From assembly GCA_964589765.1 (NCBI GenBank), contig CAZPUM010000004.1, forward strand, positions 1-56,366: a DNA stretch of 56,366 bases. The letters run 5' to 3'. A program made the translations under genes and the position numbers. This document shows, one piece after another, positions 9,161 to 48,553 of this stretch (its first letter is position 1; every line of letters starts with the position of its first letter). The notes beneath the pieces are model-generated. The model was given only the letters and a program-made list of their open reading frames with translations. It was not told the DNA's origin and ran no database searches. The DNA is from an uncultured Methanosarcinales archaeon. Its GTDB lineage: Archaea > Nanobdellota > Nanobdellia > Woesearchaeales > UBA525.

Positions 9161-12100
9161 CCTGAAGTCACCACTTGCCAAGCTGTTGGAGTATAATATT
9201 CCTGGTTGCTATTTGAGATAGGCATACTTAACCAGAGCGTAATCGAATTAGATGCACCATTACCAGGGAACAAACCGTAGTTTAAATCCTTTAAAATTCC
9301 ATCTGCAAGAAGTGTGGCATTTGTTAAATCATTTCCTGCTTTGAAATTACTGGCCAAAAGAGCTTCTGAACTATCAGTTCTACCTTCCAAATCATAAGCA
9401 CGCATGCTAAAATTCAGTTCAACATTTCCTGTGTTCAAAATAGTAACTGCAGGAGTACCTTGTGCATTATTAATTCCCGGACCTGCCGTAGGGAATGTAA
9501 CTGAATCAACTGTTCTTTGCGATGCTAACAGTTCAGCATACTCGCAAACGTTATTCACAGTGGTTGTAGCAGTCTTCCCTGGAGCAACTGTGACGTTTAT
9601 GAATAAGTCGTAGTCGCCTGGAACATAATAGTAACTCATAGGTATTGAACAATTATATGCATGTTCTGTAGAACTAGTAGTTGTAACTGAGCAGGTTGTC
9701 GTACTATAAGTGTTTGCACCTAAAGATACGCTAACCTCATTGATAGTGTCTTGAGTAATCCCTCCACCATAATTAACTGTGAAGTTCACAGGTATTCTAA
9801 CGGCTTCAGGCTGATCGTTTTCATTCGGATAAGTCAATGCTTGGCAAGTATTTTCTACAAATGTAGGAATTATATTTATGATGAAATCAACAGCATTTGT
9901 TCCTGCATCCGCAGTGAAATAATCATCTGAAGCAGTTACATAAACTTTACCTTGAGTAGTTTCAACAAACCAGTTATCTATGGTGTAATTTGTTACCGTC
10001 TGCGAACTAACAACAGTAGTGTTTGTGCCATTCAAATCAACTTTAACTTCATAAGCATATGTGCCAATTCCTTCTGTAGCTGCAGTCCAATTTATGCGCC
10101 AATAAGGATTGTTTGTAATTGTAACCCCGTCTGGCTGGACATTTGTAACTGGTTGCAACTTGCTAACATTGAAAGCATCTGTTGTATTAGAAGCACTAGC
10201 AGACTGATCATTGTAAGTCTCAGTTAATGTCACCGTGTAAATGTTCTCACCTACTGAGAAACTGTTAGTTGTTGCTAAACCATATTGCTGATCTTGCACT
10301 GTGAACTCACTACTGTTTGTAGTAGTGTTACCCAGAGCATTGTCAGACCAAGTTACGTTGATGTTTGTATCTGTTTCATTCCAGAACGGTTGTGAATTAC
10401 CTAGTTCATCTTTGACTGCTAAAGCATACACTCTTGGTAAAGGCTTAGTGGTGCCGTTAGCCTCTGCAATCTCGGAACCGTAAATCTTCACTTCATCAGA
10501 ACCATCAAAATAACCGGAAGCATTGAAAGTATACGTAGCAGTTGTTTCAAGCTCTGCAAATGTCAAATTATTAAGCTGGAATGTTGCATCAGTAAATCCC
10601 CCGCCAATAATATCATCAACTCTATCAGTTATATTACCGAAAGGCAATTCAACAACAGCAAATAAAGTGTTGTTTCTACCTAAATTAGCAGAAACAGATT
10701 GATTAACAGAAATAGCAAACTCATATTCAGTATCAGGATAAAGTGTAAACCTGGGCTCAAATAAGTTCTGCTGTGCTGTATTACCTCTTAAACCCGTAAA
10801 TGTAACTAACAGAAGCCCACTAGTCTCATTATATATTTTAAGAACTTGCGGAAGCCTTGAACCATAGTTATAACCAGTTATACTCCTTAACTGCTGAACA
10901 CTTCGGGGTTTATATGAAAAACCACCATAAACATCAGAAGTCACACTAGATGTAAGAGTGAATGTAAGTGCATTTAAATCATCAACAACTGTAATGTTTT
11001 CTGCAACATCAGTAAATTGGACATCAGTATCAGAATCGCAGAAATAAGTACCGTTACCGTTTTCAACACAGAAATTAGATAGTTGAACATCGTTATATTC
11101 ATCATAAAGATACGCAGTTAATTGTGAGAAAGGACTCAAGAACACAAAATCAACACTGGAATAATTACTTACATTCTTAGAAACCATACGATCTATGGAA
11201 TACTTCTCTGTAGAATTTGCCCAAAATTCCACATCAGGATAATTACCATCATAAGTAACTTCTGCCGATAAAGAACCATTAACAGTACACTCCAACCTAT
11301 CTTCAGTAGTTGAATCTATTATGGACACCACATCGGTCCAAGAAACGCAGAACAAATCTATTTGTCCGCCATTTGAAGCTGAAAAGTTTACCAACGTCAT
11401 TACTGGTAATGCAGATGTTCTTACTACTTTCGTAATATTTCTTGCGAGCCCTAATCTGTATGTAATTGTGCCACCATTATCGCTCCTATCTAGGACTTTA
11501 CCAACATTCTTCGGAAGGCTAGCCTCTCCAGAGTGCGCAACACTCCTTGTACCTTTATAACTGGTTGAACTCCATAATTCAACTTGATCTCCATCAAAAA
11601 TCGTCCAAATATAATCTTCCAATGCACCACTGTACCAAACAGTTCCGTTTGCTTGGTAAATAGTTACTCCCGTAGTAGTAAAATCATACCTAAAGCTATT
11701 TATGGGAGGATTTGCAGGAAAAGGAGTAGAAAAGTTCGTCCAAGCAATCTCTATGTTGTTTCTCTCAGTATTAGTCATGCCCGATAAATTGAAAAATAAA
11801 ACAACTGGATCACTGAGAGGAATTGTATCCGGATAAGGAGGAAGCGCTGTGTGATTACCGGGCACTCCATCGGCACGACTCCAATCAGCATCATAAACCA
11901 TATTTCTCTTCACTATAGAATACGCATTAAAATAAACCTCATCTTGACCCAGGCCAGAAGAGTTCATGGCAAAACCAGTTATATTAACATATTCACCTGA
12001 AGTAAAATTTACATCATAACTTGAATTAGTAGCATTACCGCCAGTATAATTTAGATAAAGAAAATTAGTCTCCGTAGATGCGTAGAATGGCTCCAACCCT

Positions 12101-20878: not shown

Positions 20879-21751
20879 TTAGATATCTTCTGAATTGGCA
20901 GACTTAAGCTCAGAATCAGAACCGTGACAAACTTCCCAGTATGCACACCGCCCATTACGCCATCTACAAGGAAACTTATTGCGATTATAGTTAACATTTG
21001 GAATAGTTCTATTTTCAACACAACATTTCAGATCTTCATACCAACGCTTAACTTTATTCACACGCCAATCTTCAATCTCCATAGGAAAATGAAACAGTTC
21101 CTGAGTATGCTTAGACTCATAAATTATTTCCCCTGTAACAGGAGCATTTGACATTAACAGAAGCTGTTCAGCCCTGTCTAAATCATCCCAATTTTCAAAT
21201 ACTTCTTTTAATTCGGACTCATCGTAAGTCATATCCGGAACAAGACCTGCTTCTATTTTCATTTGCCTTCTCCTAGACTCCCACATGAACATATACCACG
21301 TCAACTGCCCTTCGTGCTCATCTTTAGCCTCACGCACATAACTAGAGTTAATACTTTTAAACTCCACAACCACAAACTTACCTTTATAGAAAACTATTCC
21401 GTCACAACGGCCGTGAATATCTAAGTTATCTCTCGGTATGTCTATCTCCTCTAAAAACTCGTAATTCGGAGAAAGATGGAAGTAATTTGAAAGTCTCTCG
21501 TGAACATTCTCCCCATTATGAAATATTCTAAGAGTTCTCGGTTCAAAATCTTCTTGGCTATACTCTAACGGAAAAAACTGTAAACATATCTTTCGCATAC
21601 ACTGCCCGTAATCAGAAGCATACATACTTCTCGACTTATTGCCCCGTTCAGCCATCCTTCCAGCATTCCACATTCTAACTCCTTCATCAAGAATGTCCTC
21701 AAAAGGAGAGGAAAATTTCTCTTTCTTCTTAGGCTCTATGCGCTTTACCAT
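20879..21751 (-). CDS. cas4: Cas4-like PD-(D/E)xK nuclease with 4-Cys cluster
   Basis: 'YGQCMRKICL', 'GENVHERL', 'IHGRCDGIVF', 'VVVEFKS', 'GQLTWYMF' and C-terminal 'CRWRNGRCAYWEVC'. Confidence 0.8.
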   Translation of the reverse strand: MVKRIEPKKKEKFSSPFEDILDEGVRMWNAGRMAERGNKSRSMYASDYGQCMRKICLQFFPLEYSQEDFEPRTLRIFHNGENVHERLSNYFHLSPNYEFLEEIDIPRDNLDIHGRCDGIVFYKGKFVVVEFKSINSSYVREAKDEHEGQLTWYMFMWESRRRQMKIEAGLVPDMTYDESELKEVFENWDDLDRAEQLLLMSNAPVTGEIIYESKHTQELFHFPMEIEDWRVNKVKRWYEDLKCCVENRTIPNVNYNRNKFPCRWRNGRCAYWEVCHGSDSELKSANSEDI

Positions 21752-24700
21752 TATTTCTTCCCCCGTTTAGTTCCTGGAATTATCCATTTACCAGCCATTT
21801 CCCTAGTCATACGAACACGCTCTGCAATTTCATTAGGAACCACTCCTGCATTGTATTCAGGATAAAGTTTGTTGATTATTTGAATCACCCTGTCTTTAGG
21901 AATATAACCTAACTTCTTAACATACACTTTCTCTGCCTGTTTAAATAGACTTGAACTCATAACTGCATCTGCACGCTCTTCAAACGGATCATCTTGATTT
22001 TGACCTAAGAGCTTCTCCAAATGCGCATCTTTTTTCGCCTCATATGCTTCCATAAACTCTTTTGTAGCAAGACTATTTCCATTTTCATCAACTTTCAAAG
22101 GAGAAGGAATTTTTATGTGTCCAAGAGTCTGACGTTCCCTGGTCTTAAGCGCCGCAACTGACTCTTGAGTTTCTTTATCAATAAACAAAACTTCTATGAC
22201 ATACATGCTCGTGTTAGACTCACTGTGAAGCACTGGAGAACAGAAAAATAAGTGAATAGACTTCTTTCTAAGCTGCTCCTTCAGACCTTGAAGTATAATC
22301 ATAACTCTATTGCTGTCAAGACCGTATGATTGACTCTGCTCATCAAGAAGAACTGCAGAGTGTGGTTTTAACTTATGTCTATTTCTTACCAAATCATCAT
22401 AACTGAAAAATATCTTATTAACTGTGAAATCAGGATCCATCATACGACATAAAGATATTGCCGACCAACTATTGTGTGTAAGAAGACCTCCATTCACAAC
22501 AAACAAAGAATCATCCGCATCTACTGAAATATCTAAACAAGAGTGAATTCCAGCACAGCTTATCTTGCAGACTGTTCCAAACTTCGCATCCAAATCCGTA
22601 GTATTTACTACAGGCCTAGTTCTTCTGAATTCTAAAAGACTTTTTCTGTTCTCTTCGTTTTGACCTATCAATTTCAACGACTCTAAATATTTTATTCCTT
22701 GCTTAACTGGAAACCTAATACGAACATATTCTCTACCTTTCCAAGGACCTGACTTCAACTCCCTAATAGTAACAGAAGGAAAATGGCCTAAAGAATGCAT
22801 CAAATCCAGTATCTGACAACCCAATTCTCTCGACTTCACCATGTGACCTATTTCATATTTATAACTAGTCCCATTCCTGCCGTAATTACAAGTTAAATCT
22901 CCTGAAGCATATCCTTCTAAGAAACCTTTCATACCTTTTTCAGTTTTGAACACGCTTTCAGGAATACTCTTGCAAATCGAATTCGCACCACACTCTTCTA
23001 AAAAACTCTTGGCCTCTTCTTGACCATAAGCCATCAAAACAAACTTGCCATTCCCTGAAGCATTGTTCAACCGAACGGATGTGAAACCAAACTCTTTTTC
23101 TACATACTGCTTCACTTTTTTCAAAAAGGTATTGCAATTATTACTGAACATTAAATAACTGCCCTTAGCACCAGTATCGTCTGCAATAAAAGCACCATAC
23201 ACAAACGCTTTACGGTAATCAGAATCACTTCCTTTTTCTTCTGGTTCGAAGATTCTAGTTTTGATAACGTCGCCCACATTCAACTGAGAAGCCTTCTTCA
23301 CTTTACCACTTTCTAACTCAAATTTATGGTCTAAAGAGACAACCACTGGAACTGAAGAATGAGAATTTATCTTCAAACAATCTTTATCTTCAACTTTAAA
23401 TCTCTTCAGAACCTTTGTATTTAAAGAAGAACCTGATATAACAGCTCCTTCAAACAGATCTCTCAACTTACAATAAATACCGTTATCTAAACGCACAGAT
23501 TCTTGCACCGATATACACTTACCGACGCCCTGACTTCCTGTGATACTACAAATCAAACTGTGCTCTAAGTTCGGGTCGGCCCTTTCAAAGACTGTATTAA
23601 AAAAGATTTCAGAATAGTCACAATTATGAACTAATATGCCGCCACCCAAACAAAAAAGACTATCTTTATCGACCGCAATATCAACACACTTTCGTTCCCC
23701 CACTTCTTTCTTCCACCTAACTACAGGAATACGCACACCATTTTCAATTATTGGAACCCTGTATCTAATAGTTGACAACTTTTCATCCAATTCACTTAAT
23801 CTTTTCAAAACATCATCTTTACTTTCTGATTTTTTCTTAGTGTGAATAATCAAATATTCTAAAAACTCCTTAACTTTATTTGCCCCAAATCCTATTCTAT
23901 AGTATCTATACCTATTTTCAGGGATTTTTCTTCTCTTTCCGGGATAATAATCCCTGTGTTCCAAATCTGGATAAAATCCCGCAGACCAAAGAGCTCTAAG
24001 TAGAATCTGAGCTACGGAATCAAAAGAAACATTGAATGCTACTGAAATCACATTCTTTTTACCAGTTACATTAACTCCAAAGTCGCAACTAGCAAAACCA
24101 TGTATGAATCCATCTCTAAACTTTTCCTGTTGTAATAAATTCTTAGACACTTTCTTATGTTGATCTCTAGATAGCTTTCTACCAGAGTACCCATATTTTT
24201 CTATAATTTGCTCAACCCCTTCCTTACCGTATAACATAAGTCTACAGCAATGCTCCATACTGATAATTTTATACGACGTCAACTTGAACTTCTCCAAAGC
24301 AATTTTGCCTAATTTATCTAAAAATTCATAATCACCATTACTAATGGAGCAATACCTAGTTCCACTACCGGAAGCAGTTTCAGACGTTTTAAACACACAA
24401 CCACATCCATCTGCCAAATATGCTCCTGCAAAAAGACCTTCCTCATAATCTCCTCCCTTCTCCACAGATAATTTTACTGCAGCCAACAGTTCTCCTTCTT
24501 GCAAATCCTTTGCTTTTTTGATATCTCCATTATGAAGAACTACTGGATGATCTTCTGAAACAGTGAAGGGAACCATACAATCAGTATTAATTTCTAAACA
24601 TTTCTTATTAGCATATTTTTTAGCCAAAACCCTTCTATTTGCTCTTCCTTCTACAACATCTCCAACTTCAACATCTGTTATTTTCTTCAACTCATCATTC

Positions 24701-24822
24701 ACAAACAGATATTCATTTTCCTCAACACAATCAAGAAATCTGTAGAACGTACCATCAGCATCTTCCCTAAGCTCTATCACATCTCTAACTTCTTGCGGCA
24801 GCTCATTGAAATCAATCGCCAT
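21751..24822 (-). CDS. P-loop NTPase (putative genome-packaging / terminase-like ATPase) interrupted by two inteins
   Basis: Spliced product is about 305 aa. Walker A 'GSQGVGK|S' is split by intein 2. Walker B 'AVLLDEQ'. No nuclease domain recognised. Confidence 0.7.
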   Translation of the reverse strand: MAIDFNELPQEVRDVIELREDADGTFYRFLDCVEENEYLFVNDELKKITDVEVGDVVEGRANRRVLAKKYANKKCLEINTDCMVPFTVSEDHPVVLHNGDIKKAKDLQEGELLAAVKLSVEKGGDYEEGLFAGAYLADGCGCVFKTSETASGSGTRYCSISNGDYEFLDKLGKIALEKFKLTSYKIISMEHCCRLMLYGKEGVEQIIEKYGYSGRKLSRDQHKKVSKNLLQQEKFRDGFIHGFASCDFGVNVTGKKNVISVAFNVSFDSVAQILLRALWSAGFYPDLEHRDYYPGKRRKIPENRYRYYRIGFGANKVKEFLEYLIIHTKKKSESKDDVLKRLSELDEKLSTIRYRVPIIENGVRIPVVRWKKEVGERKCVDIAVDKDSLFCLGGGILVHNCDYSEIFFNTVFERADPNLEHSLICSITGSQGVGKCISVQESVRLDNGIYCKLRDLFEGAVISGSSLNTKVLKRFKVEDKDCLKINSHSSVPVVVSLDHKFELESGKVKKASQLNVGDVIKTRIFEPEEKGSDSDYRKAFVYGAFIADDTGAKGSYLMFSNNCNTFLKKVKQYVEKEFGFTSVRLNNASGNGKFVLMAYGQEEAKSFLEECGANSICKSIPESVFKTEKGMKGFLEGYASGDLTCNYGRNGTSYKYEIGHMVKSRELGCQILDLMHSLGHFPSVTIRELKSGPWKGREYVRIRFPVKQGIKYLESLKLIGQNEENRKSLLEFRRTRPVVNTTDLDAKFGTVCKISCAGIHSCLDISVDADDSLFVVNGGLLTHNSWSAISLCRMMDPDFTVNKIFFSYDDLVRNRHKLKPHSAVLLDEQSQSYGLDSNRVMIILQGLKEQLRKKSIHLFFCSPVLHSESNTSMYVIEVLFIDKETQESVAALKTRERQTLGHIKIPSPLKVDENGNSLATKEFMEAYEAKKDAHLEKLLGQNQDDPFEERADAVMSSSLFKQAEKVYVKKLGYIPKDRVIQIINKLYPEYNAGVVPNEIAERVRMTREMAGKWIIPGTKRGKK
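22471..23517 (-). mobile_element. intein 2 (349 aa) with LAGLIDADG domain, inserted in the P-loop
   Basis: Starts 'CISVQESVRL' after GVGK. 'SLDHKFEL'. LAGLIDADG motifs 'FVYGAFIADDTG' and 'FLEGYASGDLT'. Ends 'LLTHN' followed by +1 Ser. Confidence 0.8.
23623..24729 (-). mobile_element. intein 1 (369 aa) with LAGLIDADG homing-endonuclease domain
   Basis: Starts 'CVEENEYLF'. Block B 'TVSEDHPVV'. LAGLIDADG motifs 'LFAGAYLADGCG' and 'FIHGFASCDFG'. Ends 'ILVHN' followed by +1 Cys. Confidence 0.8.
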
Positions 24823-27805: not shown

Positions 27806-27819
27806 AAGTTATATTTAAA
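27806..27819 (-). promoter_or_regulatory. class-1 promoter motif (plus AAGTTATATTTAAA; minus TTTAAATATAACTT)
   Basis: TATA lies 22-30 nt upstream of ATG 27789. The same motif recurs at least 8 times in the window. Confidence 0.55.
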
Positions 27820-27828
27820 TCCGTCGAT

Positions 27829-39883: not shown

Positions 39884-41461
39884 TTACCGTCTTGATACCC
39901 AAGTCAAATTTATACCATCATCTTCATAAACTGTTGTAACATTTTTAAAATCCCAATCTTCAAGCTTTCTATAAGAACCATCTTCAGCCACTATGACTAT
40001 TCCCGCAGCTTTATAATAGTAAAAACCGGAAACATTTGGTAAAGTCAAATTCCAATATATCTGATCAGAGTTTAAAGCATCAAATCCTGCAGTTGCAGCC
40101 TGTCTAGGACTTATTTTGGTACTTACAATATGTTTCTTTTTTGTACAACCCACTTCATAATCATCAATTATAGATGGCAATGCACTGAAAGGAGACTCAT
40201 GAAGAACATACTTATCAACACAAGGAGTTGCTTGCATAACCCTATCTAACTCGTGGTGACTCGTGATCATATAAAGATAAGACAAGAACAAAAATATGGC
40301 TATGCAGAGAATAAACACCATGTTTCTCCAAACAACTTTCTTCAAAGAGGTAAACAACTCTACCATCACTACAATGAAAGCAAACCACATCACCACTAAG
40401 AAGAATCTATGGTGGTAAAGATGTGCAAAACCATCTCCCCCGAGCAAAGGTGCCAGTAAAAGCCCTACCATCGGAAGGACTAATGCTACAAGAGCACTAA
40501 CTCTGAAAACATACCTATTATCAATTCTTTTTTCTTTAAGCAATCGATAAGCAAACCAGAGGATTAAAACTACAAACAAAAACATAGACAAAGTAACTAT
40601 GTCGTGGTAAAACATTGGAGCATCTGTCGTTCCCACTTGTTCTAAATGGAACCAACCGTATATCATTGATGAAGGCCAAGATTGCAAAGAAGGAGGTTGG
40701 AACCACATACCATCTCCACGTGCTTTTTGCTCAAGAGCAAGACCTAAAGCATTACTCGTCCCTGCACCTAAAAAAACTAGCAAAACCAGTGCAACAACTA
40801 AAGCACTTTTCCAACCTGAACGTATTTGCGTTCTGAACAACACATACATGCAAATGAAACACGCACCTATGAACCCTGAATAATAGTGAACATTTGGCAA
40901 AATCAATATCGCAAACAAAACAACAAAAAGTAACAAAGGACCTTTTGGACTCAACCAGTATATCTCATCTACAACTATTAACATCCAATCATAAGCATTT
41001 ATTCCCAGAGCAACCAAGAACAACATCAACGCATAAGACCTTGCTTCAGTTCCATAATGAAGATATGTACTAGCAATCGATAACAGCAACAAAGTCATTC
41101 CAGCAGGTTTCTCCTCATAATGCCTATAAAGCCAAAGACCTGCAAGAAGAACAAATCCTGCCATCAGAACAAGAGAGAAAATTCTGAGCCACTGTGTGAA
41201 ATCTACGCCTGGATTTAACTTGTGCCAAACAGCTAAATACCAGTAGTATGTAGGAGGATGAACGTCCATCTCACTCCAATCAATATGTTCTCCAGCGTCC
41301 AATTTAAGAACCATTGCTGCACTAAAACTCTCATCGAACCATTGCTACCAGTACTCTCGGTCTACAACAAAGATGTTAAACAAACCAAAGAGTACAAACA
41401 GCAAAACGCAAGCTGCCAAAATATAACGCTTCGCATGATCACCTCCTGGCTCTTTACTCAT
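39884..41461 (-). CDS. GT-C fold (PMT_2/ArnT-like) polytopic glycosyltransferase with in-frame TAG at 41345-41347
   Basis: ORF track gives 39884..41314. The same frame upstream encodes 'MSKEPGGDHAKRYILAACVLLFVLFGLFNIFVVDREYW*QWFDESFSAA', i.e. TM1 plus a DE motif. 'HPPTYYW' follows. A promoter lies 19-31 nt upstream of ATG 41461. Confidence 0.6.
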
Positions 41462-41479
41462 ATCTAACAAGTTTGTAAC

Positions 41480-41492
41480 AAGTTGTATTTAA
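41480..41492 (-). promoter_or_regulatory. class-1 promoter motif
   Basis: Plus AAGTTGTATTTAA. It fits ATG 41461, not ATG 41314. Confidence 0.5.
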
Positions 41493-41500
41493 TTGTTACG

Positions 41501-41573
41501 CAAAAATAAATGGCAAGAACTCAGGTGACTCGGGCTGTGTGGTGAACCTACAAAGCAAAACAAGTTCTTGCCA
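41501..41573 (-). terminator. 11-bp-stem hairpin followed by a T-run
   Basis: TGGCAAGAACT (41511-41521) pairs with AGTTCTTGCCA (41563-41573). On the minus strand it is followed by TTTATTTTTG. Confidence 0.45.
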
Positions 41574-42027
41574 ATACAATCATCCTTAAGAAATACTTAA
41601 ATGTTTCTAATAACGATTTAAGATACTAAAAAACACCAAAAATATGGCAAGTGGAGGTGGTCTTAGAAATAGTAGATAAAGTACAAACGCCACCAGAACA
41701 GACTTAGTTTAGGCGTTTTAGGCTGACAAGCCAACTTCAATCGTCCCTGTGAAAGACGGTTCCTTAATTTTGGGCGGTGGTAATTACTCAGCAAGGCTGA
41801 GAGTCAGGTTCGTTGCCACCATGTAACCGACTGAACGTCGGATAAAAACTAAAGGTCGCACGACCTAAAAGTTGCTCCCGCCAGAGCAACTAACTCCTTT
41901 TTTATTTGGGCGGTGGTTTCGGCATCGCTGAGGTCAGGATGCCTTACTAACACTCTTCCTAATTTGGTGGTTGAGGTGGAACGGTTTCCTCACGCTCCCT
42001 AATCAAGAGCTTAAACCTTGCCTGGCC
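41574..42027 (-). ncRNA. candidate structured noncoding RNA (G+C-rich, hairpin-dense, no ORF)
   Basis: Own copy of the promoter motif at 42046-42067. Stems include GTTGCTC/GAGCAAC, CTCAGC/GCTGAG, GGCATC/GATGCC, CCGAC/GTCGG and AAACGCC/GGCGTTT. Minus-strand 'ACCACCGCCCAAA' occurs twice plus one variant. Confidence 0.45.
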
Positions 42028-42045
42028 ACAACATAAGATTCTATT

Positions 42046-42067
42046 GCCAGTATATAAACTTACCTAT
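42046..42067 (-). promoter_or_regulatory. class-2 promoter motif copy (plus gccagtatataaacttacctat)
   Basis: 21/22 identical to 43819-43840. Minus TATA is TTTATATA. Confidence 0.5.
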
Positions 42068-42071
42068 GTTT

Positions 42072-43823
42072 CTATAACGATTTAGGATACTCCACAGCAA
42101 AATTCATGAAATAATTCTTAGCATCCTCTGAAAAAGGATAGACATATTTGTGCTTACCCGGAACTAACTGTCTTTCACAATCAGAATAACCAACACCATC
42201 TTTCTCCATAGACTTTTTGAAAAATCTTCCTGAATATACTTTGCCCGTATTAGATATATATTGAGTGACAGGAACAGTTCTTCCCAGATAGAGAAAATTT
42301 GCAGCTTGGTATATAGTACCTGTATGATTTACATTACTATCTGCAAACGTCTTTATAAAATGCACATTAAGGGCAGAACCTTTAATTTTCTTAATAAACT
42401 TAGCCAAAACTTTAGAAGCCACAATAGAAGTTAAATCTTTCAATGCAAATCTGCGCAATTCTAATCCACTCAAACCTGCTTCATCCTTAGTGGAAGAAAC
42501 TCCTGCCAAACCTATCAACTCACCATTTTCCAAATATCCATAACAAGTACAAGAACCTGGAAGAGTTTTCAAATAATGATATTTTTCAAGAAATTCTACT
42601 GCAAGCGACCTACTAATAGTTTTCACCTCAACACCTGCAGATTTTCCCTTCTTTCTAGATAACCTAGGTTTTATATATTTTAAACAACTTAAATTACAGT
42701 AAATGGAGTTTCCATCAGTCGACTTGTAAAAATTCTTGGATTTTAGAAAATCCAAAACTTTTTTCTTCGACTTATCTGGCTTTATGGCAAAAGAACAATA
42801 CTTATCACTTAAACTACCATCACCGTCAAACAACCCACCTAAAAAATGAGGAGCATACTTATTCTCAAACACCCAAGAGAAACCAGCATCTATAAAATTA
42901 ATCCAATCTCCTTTGACTCTCACATTACCTGCATCTAAACCTTCTTTAGTAGCAAAACAAGGCAGCAAATCAACTGAGTATATGCCTATAACATAATAAT
43001 CTCCAAAATTCTTCTCACCTTTATGCTCCCAAGAACCCGTCCTAACATACTTTCTAGAAGTCAAACCAAATAATTTTTCAGCCACTTTTGCAAATTCATC
43101 TGCAAACTCCGCATCCTTTGGATGGACAGTCAAAGTCATTCCAGCAGAGTTAAAACATACATCCGAACACACAACTCCTAATAAATAAGCAAGATCCTCT
43201 GATTTAACTCTCCAATTTTCCTTTATGCAACGTCTTGCAGTTCCAAACAATTCCCTACGTTTAAGAGAAATAGAGACAGCACTTCTATCAGGAAGTTTCT
43301 TTAAAAGCTCCGATGTTTTTAGATTCTGATTAGATTTTAAGACATCAAGCTCTTTATCAGTCCATTTACTTATCTTAGAACACACAAGATTATGATTGAA
43401 TATAGCATGTTTTATTGCACGAGTGGTTCTTCCCAGAGATTCTTCCAATTCTTCGAAACTCTTTGAATGATAATTTTCCTGCAAATAGATAAGCTCTTCT
43501 TCAGTCCACCTATCTGATCTAGACAAACCTATAGAACGTGCCTTAGCACTTATGGCTGTCCAAGACCTATTAAACTGATTGACTAAATCTTTTATCTCAC
43601 CAGTTTCAAAAACTTCTTTCAGAAATTCTTCTTCTCCTAAAGTCCAGCCCTTATCTTTTCCTCTAGTAAGACCCAATCTGTTTGCTTTTGCACGAATAGC
43701 TCCTTTATCTCTTTGAAACAAAGCTTCCAGTTCTTTCCAAGATTTAACAACGTAATTTTTTTTTAAAAGTTCCAATTCAGCTTCTGACCAAGTAATTACC
43801 ACAATATGAGATTTAATCGCCAA
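42072..43823 (-). CDS. Myb/SANT-like x4 + double-LAGLIDADG + Mom-like (GNAT-fold) domain fusion protein, paralog 1
   Basis: Four W-x2-EE...R-x3-I repeats. 'LAYLLGVVCSDVCF' and 'FLGGLFDGDGSL'. 'YHYLKTLPG', 'ELRRF', 'HTGTIYQAANFLYLG', 'GKHKYVY'. The start is TTG 43823 or GTG 43802 (no ATG). TAG stop. Confidence 0.65.
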   Translation of the reverse strand: MAIKSHIVVITWSEAELELLKKNYVVKSWKELEALFQRDKGAIRAKANRLGLTRGKDKGWTLGEEEFLKEVFETGEIKDLVNQFNRSWTAISAKARSIGLSRSDRWTEEELIYLQENYHSKSFEELEESLGRTTRAIKHAIFNHNLVCSKISKWTDKELDVLKSNQNLKTSELLKKLPDRSAVSISLKRRELFGTARRCIKENWRVKSEDLAYLLGVVCSDVCFNSAGMTLTVHPKDAEFADEFAKVAEKLFGLTSRKYVRTGSWEHKGEKNFGDYYVIGIYSVDLLPCFATKEGLDAGNVRVKGDWINFIDAGFSWVFENKYAPHFLGGLFDGDGSLSDKYCSFAIKPDKSKKKVLDFLKSKNFYKSTDGNSIYCNLSCLKYIKPRLSRKKGKSAGVEVKTISRSLAVEFLEKYHYLKTLPGSCTCYGYLENGELIGLAGVSSTKDEAGLSGLELRRFALKDLTSIVASKVLAKFIKKIKGSALNVHFIKTFADSNVNHTGTIYQAANFLYLGRTVPVTQYISNTGKVYSGRFFKKSMEKDGVGYSDCERQLVPGKHKYVYPFSEDAKNYFMNFAVEYPKSL

Positions 43824-43840
43824 TATATAAACTTACCTAT
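43819..43840 (-). promoter_or_regulatory. class-2 promoter motif copy (plus gccaatatataaacttacctat)
   Basis: The TATA lies 22-29 nt upstream of GTG 43802. Confidence 0.5.
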
Positions 43841-43900: not shown

Positions 43901-44071
43901 TTATCTGAACAAAGCGCCAAGTTTGACAAAGATACCAATTATAAAGCCTAGAACTATAAGCAATACGATAAGGTCTAGCCATTCGACTACTGCAGCACCA
44001 GCAGTGCCCAAACCGTCTTCTACGATCAGTTGCAGGTCGTCCCTGTCATATCCGTTTCCAGTGTATGTCAT
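43901..44071 (-). CDS. 56-aa hydrophobic coat-like (candidate major structural) protein, copy 1
   Basis: Hand translation: MTYTGNGYDRDDLQLIVEDGLGTAGAAVVEWLDLIVLLIVLGFIIGIFVKLGALFR. GGAGGTGA SD. Below the ORF-track cutoff. Confidence 0.65.
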   Translation of the reverse strand: MTYTGNGYDRDDLQLIVEDGLGTAGAAVVEWLDLIVLLIVLGFIIGIFVKLGALFR

Positions 44072-46033: not shown

Positions 46034-46047
46034 GAAGTAGTATTTAA
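46034..46047 (-). promoter_or_regulatory. class-1-like promoter motif
   Basis: Plus GAAGTAGTATTTAA. Confidence 0.45.
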
Positions 46048-46076
46048 TTATTTCCTATTATTTCCCGTATACGCCA

Positions 46077-48093: not shown

Positions 48094-48107
48094 GAAGTTG
48101 TATTTAA
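48094..48107 (-). promoter_or_regulatory. class-1 promoter motif
   Basis: Plus GAAGTTGTATTTAA. TATA lies 25-31 nt upstream of ATG 48076. Confidence 0.55.
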
Positions 48108-48553
48108 GCTTGTTGATTTTTGTACTCTTTTACCAAAGGAGCAAACCTTCTTGTCCCAAAACTTTCAATATAAATCTCCCCCATAACTCTGTAAAATTCC
48201 AAATTATCTTCAACCAGACCTTTATAAAAAACATTCTTGTACTTTCTGTTAGTCATCCAAGCAAACTTAACAGCAGATAATCTAACTTGCTTACATATCC
48301 CGTGACTAAATTGCAACACAATAAACTTGTTACCTAAATTCTGAGCAAACAAAAACCCGTTCCTACCAAACTTCACTAGACAACAAGACCCTCCATCAAT
48401 ATTCCACACCTTCAAAACAATCGCAGTCCTCATCAAAGTCCGCGTCATGCTCCTGATAACACGCGGAACAGTTGTTTCACTATATGGAACTATGTAAGGA
48501 ATGGACAACCTGCTTAAACCCATAATATCCTTCAGAACTTTCTCTGTTATCAA
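48104..48553 (-). CDS. hypothetical protein (149 aa)
   Basis: ORF track. Confidence 0.6.
   Translation of the reverse strand: MITEKVLKDIMGLSRLSIPYIVPYSETTVPRVIRSMTRTLMRTAIVLKVWNIDGGSCCLVKFGRNGFLFAQNLGNKFIVLQFSHGICKQVRLSAVKFAWMTNRKYKNVFYKGLVEDNLEFYRVMGEIYIESFGTRRFAPLVKEYKNQQA

Follow-up and report, generated by a model that had tools for sequence, protein, structure and literature searches.

The 56,366-nucleotide (nt) window analysed here is the whole of contig C4 in a 56-contig, 1.25 Mb archaeal assembly, and between its Mom-like gene 1 (Mom1) and a gene for a GT-C-type membrane glycosyltransferase (GT-C) it holds a 398-nt core of non-coding DNA, which has a copy of the Mom1 promoter on one side and a relic of the Mom1 3' end on the other. 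We give about an even chance to the reading that a duplicated Mom1 cassette survives here as a shell, in which foreign or novel DNA has replaced the open reading frame (ORF) and from which a dead-end RNA is made. The duplicated cassette would have given both ends, namely the stretch from promoter to start codon (P2) and the last ~12 codons (R2), and the ~1.7-kb ORF between them would have been exchanged for 398 nt of unrelated non-coding DNA of different composition. This exchange would have occurred within a lineage-specific rearrangement that also put GT-C between Mom1 and a structural operon. C4 has a G+C content of 37.5%, against 42-43% in nine other contigs checked and 42.3% genome-wide, and this low value would fit a virus or mobile element binned with the metagenome-assembled genome rather than a part of the chromosome.

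P1, the promoter of Mom1, and P2 share AGGTAAG-TTTATATA, a spacing of 21 nt and a GTG start codon in the minus sense. The first-pass annotation, which was made from the letters of the window alone, had seen a promoter motif identical at 21/22 positions (42046-42067 and 43819-43840); this match holds, and the repeat is really 42 nt long (43799-43840 and 42026-42067, 36/42 identical ungapped), so that it runs through the leaderless GTG. Related elements, which were fetched via the flanking proteins (L009, L010, L011, L013, L015 and L016), help to place that start. The Mom1 orthologs of L013, L015 and L016 are 44-48% identical to Mom1 (46% in L013), and the alignment with the L013 ortholog begins at its residue 4, at window position 43790. 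Together with the TATA spacing, this alignment indicates that the GTG at 43802 is the true leaderless start of Mom1, which gives a protein of ~576 amino acids (aa). The TTG start at 43823 in the mechanical list of ORFs falls within Mom1's own TATA promoter.

The direct repeat reported at the 3' side is also present. R2 (41601-41627) and the corresponding part of R1 (42066-42091) are identical at 26/27 positions with one 1-nt indel, and weaker similarity reaches ~12 nt further into the coding end of Mom1. R1 encodes a conserved Mom1 C-terminus (NFAVEYPKSL here, FALEYPKKL in L013 and NFALAYPKLL in L015) and R2 is therefore a relic of the end of a Mom1-type gene; the Mom1 ends of L015 and L013 are homologous to R1 in their DNA sequence as well. 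R1 and P2 lie end to end, as would be expected at the junction left by a tandem duplication of a unit made of promoter, Mom1 and 3' end. A similarity past R2 that resembled a decayed second promoter copy is not significant, since 50/500 shuffles score as well.

In L013, which is the closest relative (a 75-kb contig), and in L010 and L009, the common gene order is GT2 ... HIRAN - (small ORF and GT-C) - 96 aa - 118 aa ... Mom - 56 aa - 56 aa - Mom1 - 260 aa - 328 aa. The distance from the Mom1 ortholog to the next gene is 27-54 nt in L013, L015 and L016, and the promoter of that next gene (AGGTTTAAATA ... ATGAGG) overlaps the Mom1 end in these three elements. R1 and P2 of the window are the DNA-level counterpart of this junction, and exactly there ~2.2 kb is inserted, which comprises the core, R2, a large hairpin, a second-class promoter and the GT-C gene. 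The rearrangement is lineage-specific, being confined to this element among those compared, and no related locus contains a counterpart of the core or any G+C-balanced non-coding island.

P2 lies opposite the relatives' promoter of the 260-aa gene, and by this position it is the former promoter of the structural operon, which P3 now serves. P1 is a copy of P2, which displaced the class-2-like promoter that the relatives carry before Mom1. The relatives' GT-C is found after HIRAN and before the 96-aa gene, several kb upstream and without its own promoter (L013 2644-4352, L010 7817-9494, L009 7806-9614). In the window, GT-C now directly precedes the structural operon, with a newly acquired class-2 promoter.

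The core shows no coding capacity. The longest stretch of C4 without a coding-strand ORF of at least 45 aa is 41315-42071, and each of the six frames of 41600-42071 contains 8-11 stops of all three types, so that no simple recoding opens a frame. Stop-codon recoding is ruled out on these grounds, and TAG moreover ends five main genes. Searches with tblastn and the three Mom paralogs match nothing but the genuine final 8 codons of gene 1 and detect no residual homology in the core, and those with the 56-aa genes and with the relatives' neighbouring genes find nothing there; six-frame Pfam and PHROGs searches of the core are also negative. Nucleotide similarity to the core is found neither in the phage collection nor in the rest of the assembly, and 60 relatives plus 400 genomes of the order give short chance matches only. 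Exact 20-22-mers of the core are absent from the viral collection and from 185,579 species genomes. As no homolog is found anywhere searched, there is no covariation to assess.

Rfam 15 gives no match at gathering thresholds over the whole window, and with E up to 10 the region 41300-42300 has five chance-level matches only (7-19 bits). The families covered include RNase P, signal recognition particle (SRP) RNA, tRNA, group I and II introns, GOLLD, ROOL, HEARO, and the C/D and H/ACA small RNAs. ARAGORN predicts no tRNA or suppressor tRNA in the window, and with introns allowed and score thresholds of 60-80%, its sole predictions are models that contain "introns" of 150-460 nt.

These searches bear on three proposals that we consider hardly credible: a plain pseudogene (the decayed fourth Mom paralog of the first-pass annotation), an intron relic that came with a LAGLIDADG gene, and a hidden tRNA or suppressor tRNA. 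Both cassette ends do derive from Mom1, LAGLIDADG genes are often found in introns, and the next gene has an in-frame TAG. The paralogs, however, match the real gene end only, the G+C content of the core is 13 points over that of Mom1, and no intron, ribozyme or tRNA family is matched at E up to 10. There are no exons around the proposed intron, the thresholds at which ARAGORN reports anything are meaningless, and TAG is an ordinary stop on this contig. A suppressor tRNA for the TAG of GT-C is ruled out because no tRNA is found. The three proposals are largely refuted, and what stands of the decayed paralog is its two ends.

The base composition of the core differs from its surroundings. The region 41640-42030 has 47.1% G+C, which is the 98.9th percentile of 391-nt windows of the contig, and only the region ~1000-1700 (window starts 981-1321) exceeds it. 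The + strand of the core has 24.3% G and 22.8% C, against 13.8% and 23.7% contig-wide, so the extra G+C is all G. Seven perfect stems of 5-8 bp, 40 bp in total, are present, where dinucleotide shuffles give 3.05 +/- 1.5 hairpins (perfect stems of at least 5 bp) and reach seven or more in 9/500 cases. By hairpin count the core window is third of ~560 on the contig, with two coding windows slightly higher, and folding of the whole region against shuffles gives a minimum free energy (MFE) z of about -2, equal on both strands. The impression gained by eye of an ORF-free, G+C-rich and hairpin-dense stretch is thus confirmed by computation; these properties are real but statistically moderate.

The same sequence is found in an independent Logan contig of sequencing run X1 and the left junction in a second sample, X2, which shows that the core is not an assembly artefact. 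The core is identical in these two DNA runs, both of which come from microbial mats and are the sole runs that hold it; no RNA sequencing run with the core sequence was found.

The motifs of the core had been noticed in the first pass as a duplicated string with a variant and as strings complementary to Shine-Dalgarno (SD) sites, and all of them are there. Both copies of TTTGGGCGGTGGT, which reads ACCACCGCCCAAA in the minus sense, are followed after 9-14 nt by GCTGAG(A)GTCAGG, and the motif occurs nowhere else in the 1.25 Mb assembly, which also contains no complementary target for it. Besides the SD-like string next to the variant, a second one, GGAGGTGG, is located at 41653-41660 on the + strand. 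The single + strand GGAGGTG of the whole contig lies in the core region, which also holds 5 of the 11 contig copies of + strand GGTGG (CCACC in the minus sense). A scan for TTTGGGCGGTGGT...GCTGAG, which like the other motif scans requires exact matches and would miss diverged copies, gives 1 viral match, in a coding region, and 82 metagenome matches that have no similarity to the core past the pattern itself. The double motif is found in the species genomes on bacterial contigs only, mostly of G+C-rich lineages, and these are read as putative chance or Gly-repeat (GGC GGT GGT) matches.

A tentative alternative, possible but rather unlikely in our estimate, is that the core encodes a functional trans-acting structured viral RNA of ~170-400 nt in the minus sense, which would for example bind a protein or pair through ACCACCGCCCAAA and the CCACCUC(C) strings with GGAGGUG SD sites of mRNAs. 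It is favoured by the intact promoter, whose B recognition element (BRE)/TATA part is conserved at 21/22 positions, by a hairpin number ~2.6 standard deviations over the shuffles together with the MFE z of about -2, by stems that are perfect though the flanking repeats diverged, by the share of the contig's CCACC copies that falls in the region (5/11), and by a possible GGCAAG/CUUGCC closing stem that is followed by a U-run. The longest ORF-free gap with top 1.1% G+C is also the signature used in searches by the GC-IGR approach, in which G+C-rich long intergenic regions serve for the discovery of structured non-coding RNAs (PMC6429828). Against it, there is no homolog and hence no covariation, and no Rfam match; the fold z is modest and does not differ between the strands; the hairpin count is matched by coding windows in other parts of the contig; 47% G+C is well under the 57-60% found in the RNase P and SRP RNAs of the host; no complementary target of the motif is found in the assembly; and internal U-tracts should shorten the RNA.

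The structured RNA of 0.45-0.5 kb that the first-pass annotation proposed is not supported. Folding exceeds shuffles by ~2 standard deviations only and alike on both strands, no Rfam family or homolog is found, and hairpin/U-tract modules 160-190 nt past the start make a shorter RNA likelier than one of 450 nt. The lack of conservation in relatives is, moreover, the outcome which that annotation itself had set against a conserved structured RNA. A bolder version, which we hold to be very unlikely, makes the core the so far sole member of a new class of structured RNAs, encoded by a virus of DPANN archaea, with a promoter borrowed from structural genes and with the long SD sites of SD-led mRNAs as the target that it sequesters. 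If so, ACCACCGCCCAAA and CCACCUC(C), which resemble the 3' end of 16S rRNA, would sequester GGAGGUG sites or their binding protein, and translation would shift toward the element's many leaderless transcripts.

That the core acts in cis as a DNA element, such as a replication origin or single-strand initiation (ssi) site, a packaging signal or a recombination site, is quite unlikely. The seven stems contain Watson-Crick pairs only and so form equally well from either strand, a TTTGG(GC)GGTGGT-type motif occurs in three direct copies, and the core adjoins a promoter, as do the transcription-primed origins of T7 and ColE1. It is also one of only two places of C4 where the C-over-G bias of the + strand vanishes, the other being a stretch near 9.5 kb. 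But none of the syntenic relatives, whose DNA also has to be replicated and packaged, has the core, its motif copies are irregularly spaced (136 and 58 nt), unlike iterons, and no contig-wide switch of the cumulative GC skew is seen at the site. No replication or initiator gene is nearby and the sequence has no TTCC..GGAA-type dyad of archaeal origin recognition boxes (ORB or mini-ORB).

The second balanced stretch, 9461-9561, is the sole other part of C4 with positive + strand GC skew and is located inside a 1627-aa ORF.

Inert filler DNA, caught in the rearrangement, with no useful transcription or selection, and with hairpins and motifs that are properties of its source sequence, is an unlikely explanation too. 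The core is confined to this lineage and lies exactly at the rearrangement junction, its composition is unlike the surroundings, its structure statistics are only moderate, and the in-frame stop of the adjacent GT-C hints at a locus in flux. A source sequence is absent, however, from all collections searched, the promoter core has been kept intact, and the flanking repeats have diverged by ~12% while the stems are free of mismatches.

In the reading as the shell of a duplicated Mom1 cassette, terminator-like signals would close a dead-end unit. Three hairpin/U-tract modules are found 160-190 nt past the predicted P2 start; in the minus sense UUUU and UUAGUUUUUAU come after the first two stems, and the 8-bp stem has a T6 run on the + strand too. 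Further on, the CUUGCC before the U5 and U6 runs can pair with GGCAAG at 42022-42017, as predicted, and these runs (41643-41628) are a possible end of a ~400-nt read-through form. The large hairpin, which had been described as an 11-bp hairpin with a T-run, indeed consists of 10 Watson-Crick pairs and an 11th pair that is G.U in the minus sense only, followed by a U5 run, and it is oriented as a minus-sense terminator.

In the proposed course of events P2 would fire at ~42029 on the minus strand, and most transcripts would stop at the three modules (41891-41842) to give a non-coding RNA of ~165-190 nt. Transcripts that read through would extend to the U-runs (~400 nt) or to the large hairpin with its U5 run (41573-41501, ~530 nt). 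The dead-end unit would insulate the GT-C gene from an orphaned P-class promoter, which is of the wrong class for GT-C. The cassette is probably a short dead-end transcript left by the rearrangement, and a trans-acting function of the core RNA is not required by the evidence. From the expression cassette with a replaced coding part that the first-pass annotation inferred, we thus retain the intact BRE/TATA, the GTG spacing, the relic of Mom1 codons and the unrelated non-coding body, and regard a structured RNA as that body as rather unlikely.

Several points weigh against this interpretation. The activity of P2 and the termination are predictions from sequence, and no source of the core DNA was found in the collections searched. 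Archaeal termination needs oligo-U only, so three hairpins and four more exceed what a stop signal needs. P1 and P2, like R1 and R2, differ at ~12% of positions, yet the seven stems are all perfect, which, for a core of the same age as the duplication, would suggest selection on the stems. A by-product of rearrangement also does not explain why the 13-nt motif occurs twice in exact form or why anti-SD-like strings cluster here, and the possible GGCAAG/CUUGCC closing stem stands directly before a U-run.

Table 1. Features of the Mom1/GT-C region and their positions in the window.
Feature	Position	Strand	Description
P1, promoter of Mom-like gene 1	43799-43840	-	AGGTAAG, TTTATATA (43831-43824), 21 nt, leaderless GTG (43802-43800)
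Mom-like gene 1	42072-43802	-	Myb/HTH (helix-turn-helix) repeats, LAGLIDADG_3 domain, Mom domain (PF25680)
R1, source copy of 3' repeat	42066-42103	-	last ~12 codons of Mom1 (NFAVEYPKSL), TAG stop, 6 nt
P2, P1-like copy	42026-42067	-	TTTATATA at 42058-42051; GTG 42029-42027, then 8 codons only
Core X	41628-42025	no strand assigned	398 nt, non-coding, G+C 0.47, G ~ C, 7 perfect hairpins, no homolog in the collections searched
Variant motif TTTGGTGGTTG, then GAGGTGG	41963-41980 (variant itself 41963-41973)	+	GAGGTGG is CCACCUC in minus sense
Motif TTTGGGCGGTGGT, copy 2	41905-41917	+	
Terminator-like cluster	41842-41891	-	stems of 8, 5 and 5 bp at 41891-41870, 41866-41853 and 41841-41827
Motif TTTGGGCGGTGGT, copy 1	41769-41781	+	reads ACCACCGCCCAAA in minus sense
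U5 and U6 runs (AUAUUUUUGGUGUUUUUU)	41628-41643	-	directly after CUUGCC
R2, relic of Mom1 3' end	41601-41627	-	out of frame now
Large hairpin	41501-41573	-	arms 41511-41521 and 41563-41573, 41-nt loop, then AUUUAUUUUU
Second-class promoter AATTAAATACAACTT of GT-C gene	41480-41494	-	same 15-mer before Mom-like gene 2 (46035-46049)
GT-C-type (weakly EpsG-like) membrane glycosyltransferase gene	39884-41464	-	translocated; split by in-frame TAG
P3	39875-39888	-	GGTAAGTTTAAATA, 21 nt, ATG of 267-aa gene; overlaps GT-C stop codon; third P-class promoter

Phage morons, described by Hendrix and colleagues, are reportedly independent units of promoter, payload and terminator between conserved genes of lambdoid phages. 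The cassette is like a moron in being lineage-specific and in separating genes that are neighbours in the relatives, with a promoter of its own, terminator-like signals that are putatively active and a distinct composition. It differs in that the payload has no ORF, the promoter is an archaeal BRE/TATA type with a leaderless start, and the promoter and 3' end copy the ends of the neighbouring gene and were not imported. A second parallel is given by the promoter-early stem-loop (PeSL) cassettes, which flank variable genes in T4-type phages and through which modules are shuffled (PMC2839356, PMC4122927). Here, too, repeated promoter-plus-stem-loop sequences are found at the cassette boundaries of a variable region, and recombination between the boundary repeats P1/P2/P3 and R1/R2 could have mediated both duplication and replacement. 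Unlike PeSL, they comprise three promoter copies and two 3' repeats with no genome-wide family, and the promoter is archaeal.

The region resembles GC-IGR candidates and the large phage-associated non-coding RNAs GOLLD, ROOL and HEARO: no non-coding gap of this A+T-rich replicon is longer and few are richer in G+C, it is hairpin-dense, and it is part of a viral element. It differs in that it matches no Rfam family, those three included, has no homolog or covariation, and shows a modest excess of structure. A GC-IGR screen would detect it (PMC6429828), but it fails the tests by which such candidates are raised to RNA classes. With pseudogene shells formed by tandem duplication and internal replacement it shares that the 5' 42 nt and the 3' 27-38 nt of Mom1 are kept in order and orientation and abut the intact copy, but its interior is unrelated DNA of another composition, not degraded Mom1.

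Viruses of DPANN archaea are almost entirely dark matter, and we know of no non-coding RNA described for them. If the cassette RNA is functional, it would give a first handle on regulation in these viruses. The locus is a clean and datable case of gene reshuffling, with promoter copying, cassette duplication, replacement of the body and gene translocation, and it cautions that a G+C-rich and hairpin-rich gap in an A+T-rich virus does not by itself justify the call of a structured RNA. For as long as neither transcripts nor close relatives point elsewhere, the locus counts as a lineage-specific oddity of modest interest.

Two promoter classes recur in the element, each with a leaderless start 21 nt past the TATA: GGTAAGTTTAWATA (3 copies) and AATTAAATACWACTT. 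They help to annotate the element and may be its temporal classes. The AATTAAATACWACTT class has exact copies at 41480-41494 and 46035-46049 and near copies at 48095-48109 and 27806-27820. The in-frame TAG of GT-C (41345-41347) belongs to a 9-nt insertion and splits the gene into 41345-41464 and 39884-41314 on the minus strand; the split site reads DREYW*QWFD here and DRE[A/N]WFD in relatives. GT-C is a single ORF in L009 and L013. The copies of L010 and L011, each from a different sample, are split near the same place by a frameshift into 53-aa and 497-aa ORFs. A two-piece GT-C may therefore be tolerated.

Other candidates for the core were rejected. The string GAGGAAAC resembled the CR-I region of RNase P, but Rfam gives no match here and the assembly's own archaeal RNase P RNA and SRP RNA are located on other contigs (C21 and C16). 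A 23-nt similarity between 41741-41763 and 44037-44059, which might have indicated a relic of a 56-aa gene, is equalled in 55/300 shuffles and is not significant. Relics of the HIRAN, 120-aa and 188-aa genes, which flank GT-C in relatives, were not detected by tblastn. A diversity-generating retroelement template, a retron and a CRISPR mimic are rejected, with no variable repeat match, no assembly repeat and no reverse transcriptase among the ORFs scanned. As for a CRISPR array or repeat mimic, the core has two 13-nt copies and a variant only, at irregular spacing, and blastn-short against the whole assembly, as a test for host CRISPR repeats, gives no match longer than 15 nt.

The genes of C4 are all on the minus strand and nearly all dark matter, and no terminal repeats or circularity of the contig were found. 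The recognisable ones encode a GT2 glycosyltransferase, a PD-(D/E)XK nuclease, a 1023-aa intein/LAGLIDADG protein and three HTH-LAGLIDADG-Mom fusions. The 1023-aa protein (21751-24822, minus strand) has an intein splicing domain and a LAGLIDADG_3 domain, and the nuclease gene (20879-21751, minus strand) is the next one downstream of it. An exact 15-mer, TTACCCGTGAAGGCG, occurs twice on the minus strand (756-770 and 1062-1076), where 0.01 occurrences are expected by chance. Each copy stands directly past a T-run, with a small SD-led ORF downstream, and the 15-mer may be another regulatory motif.

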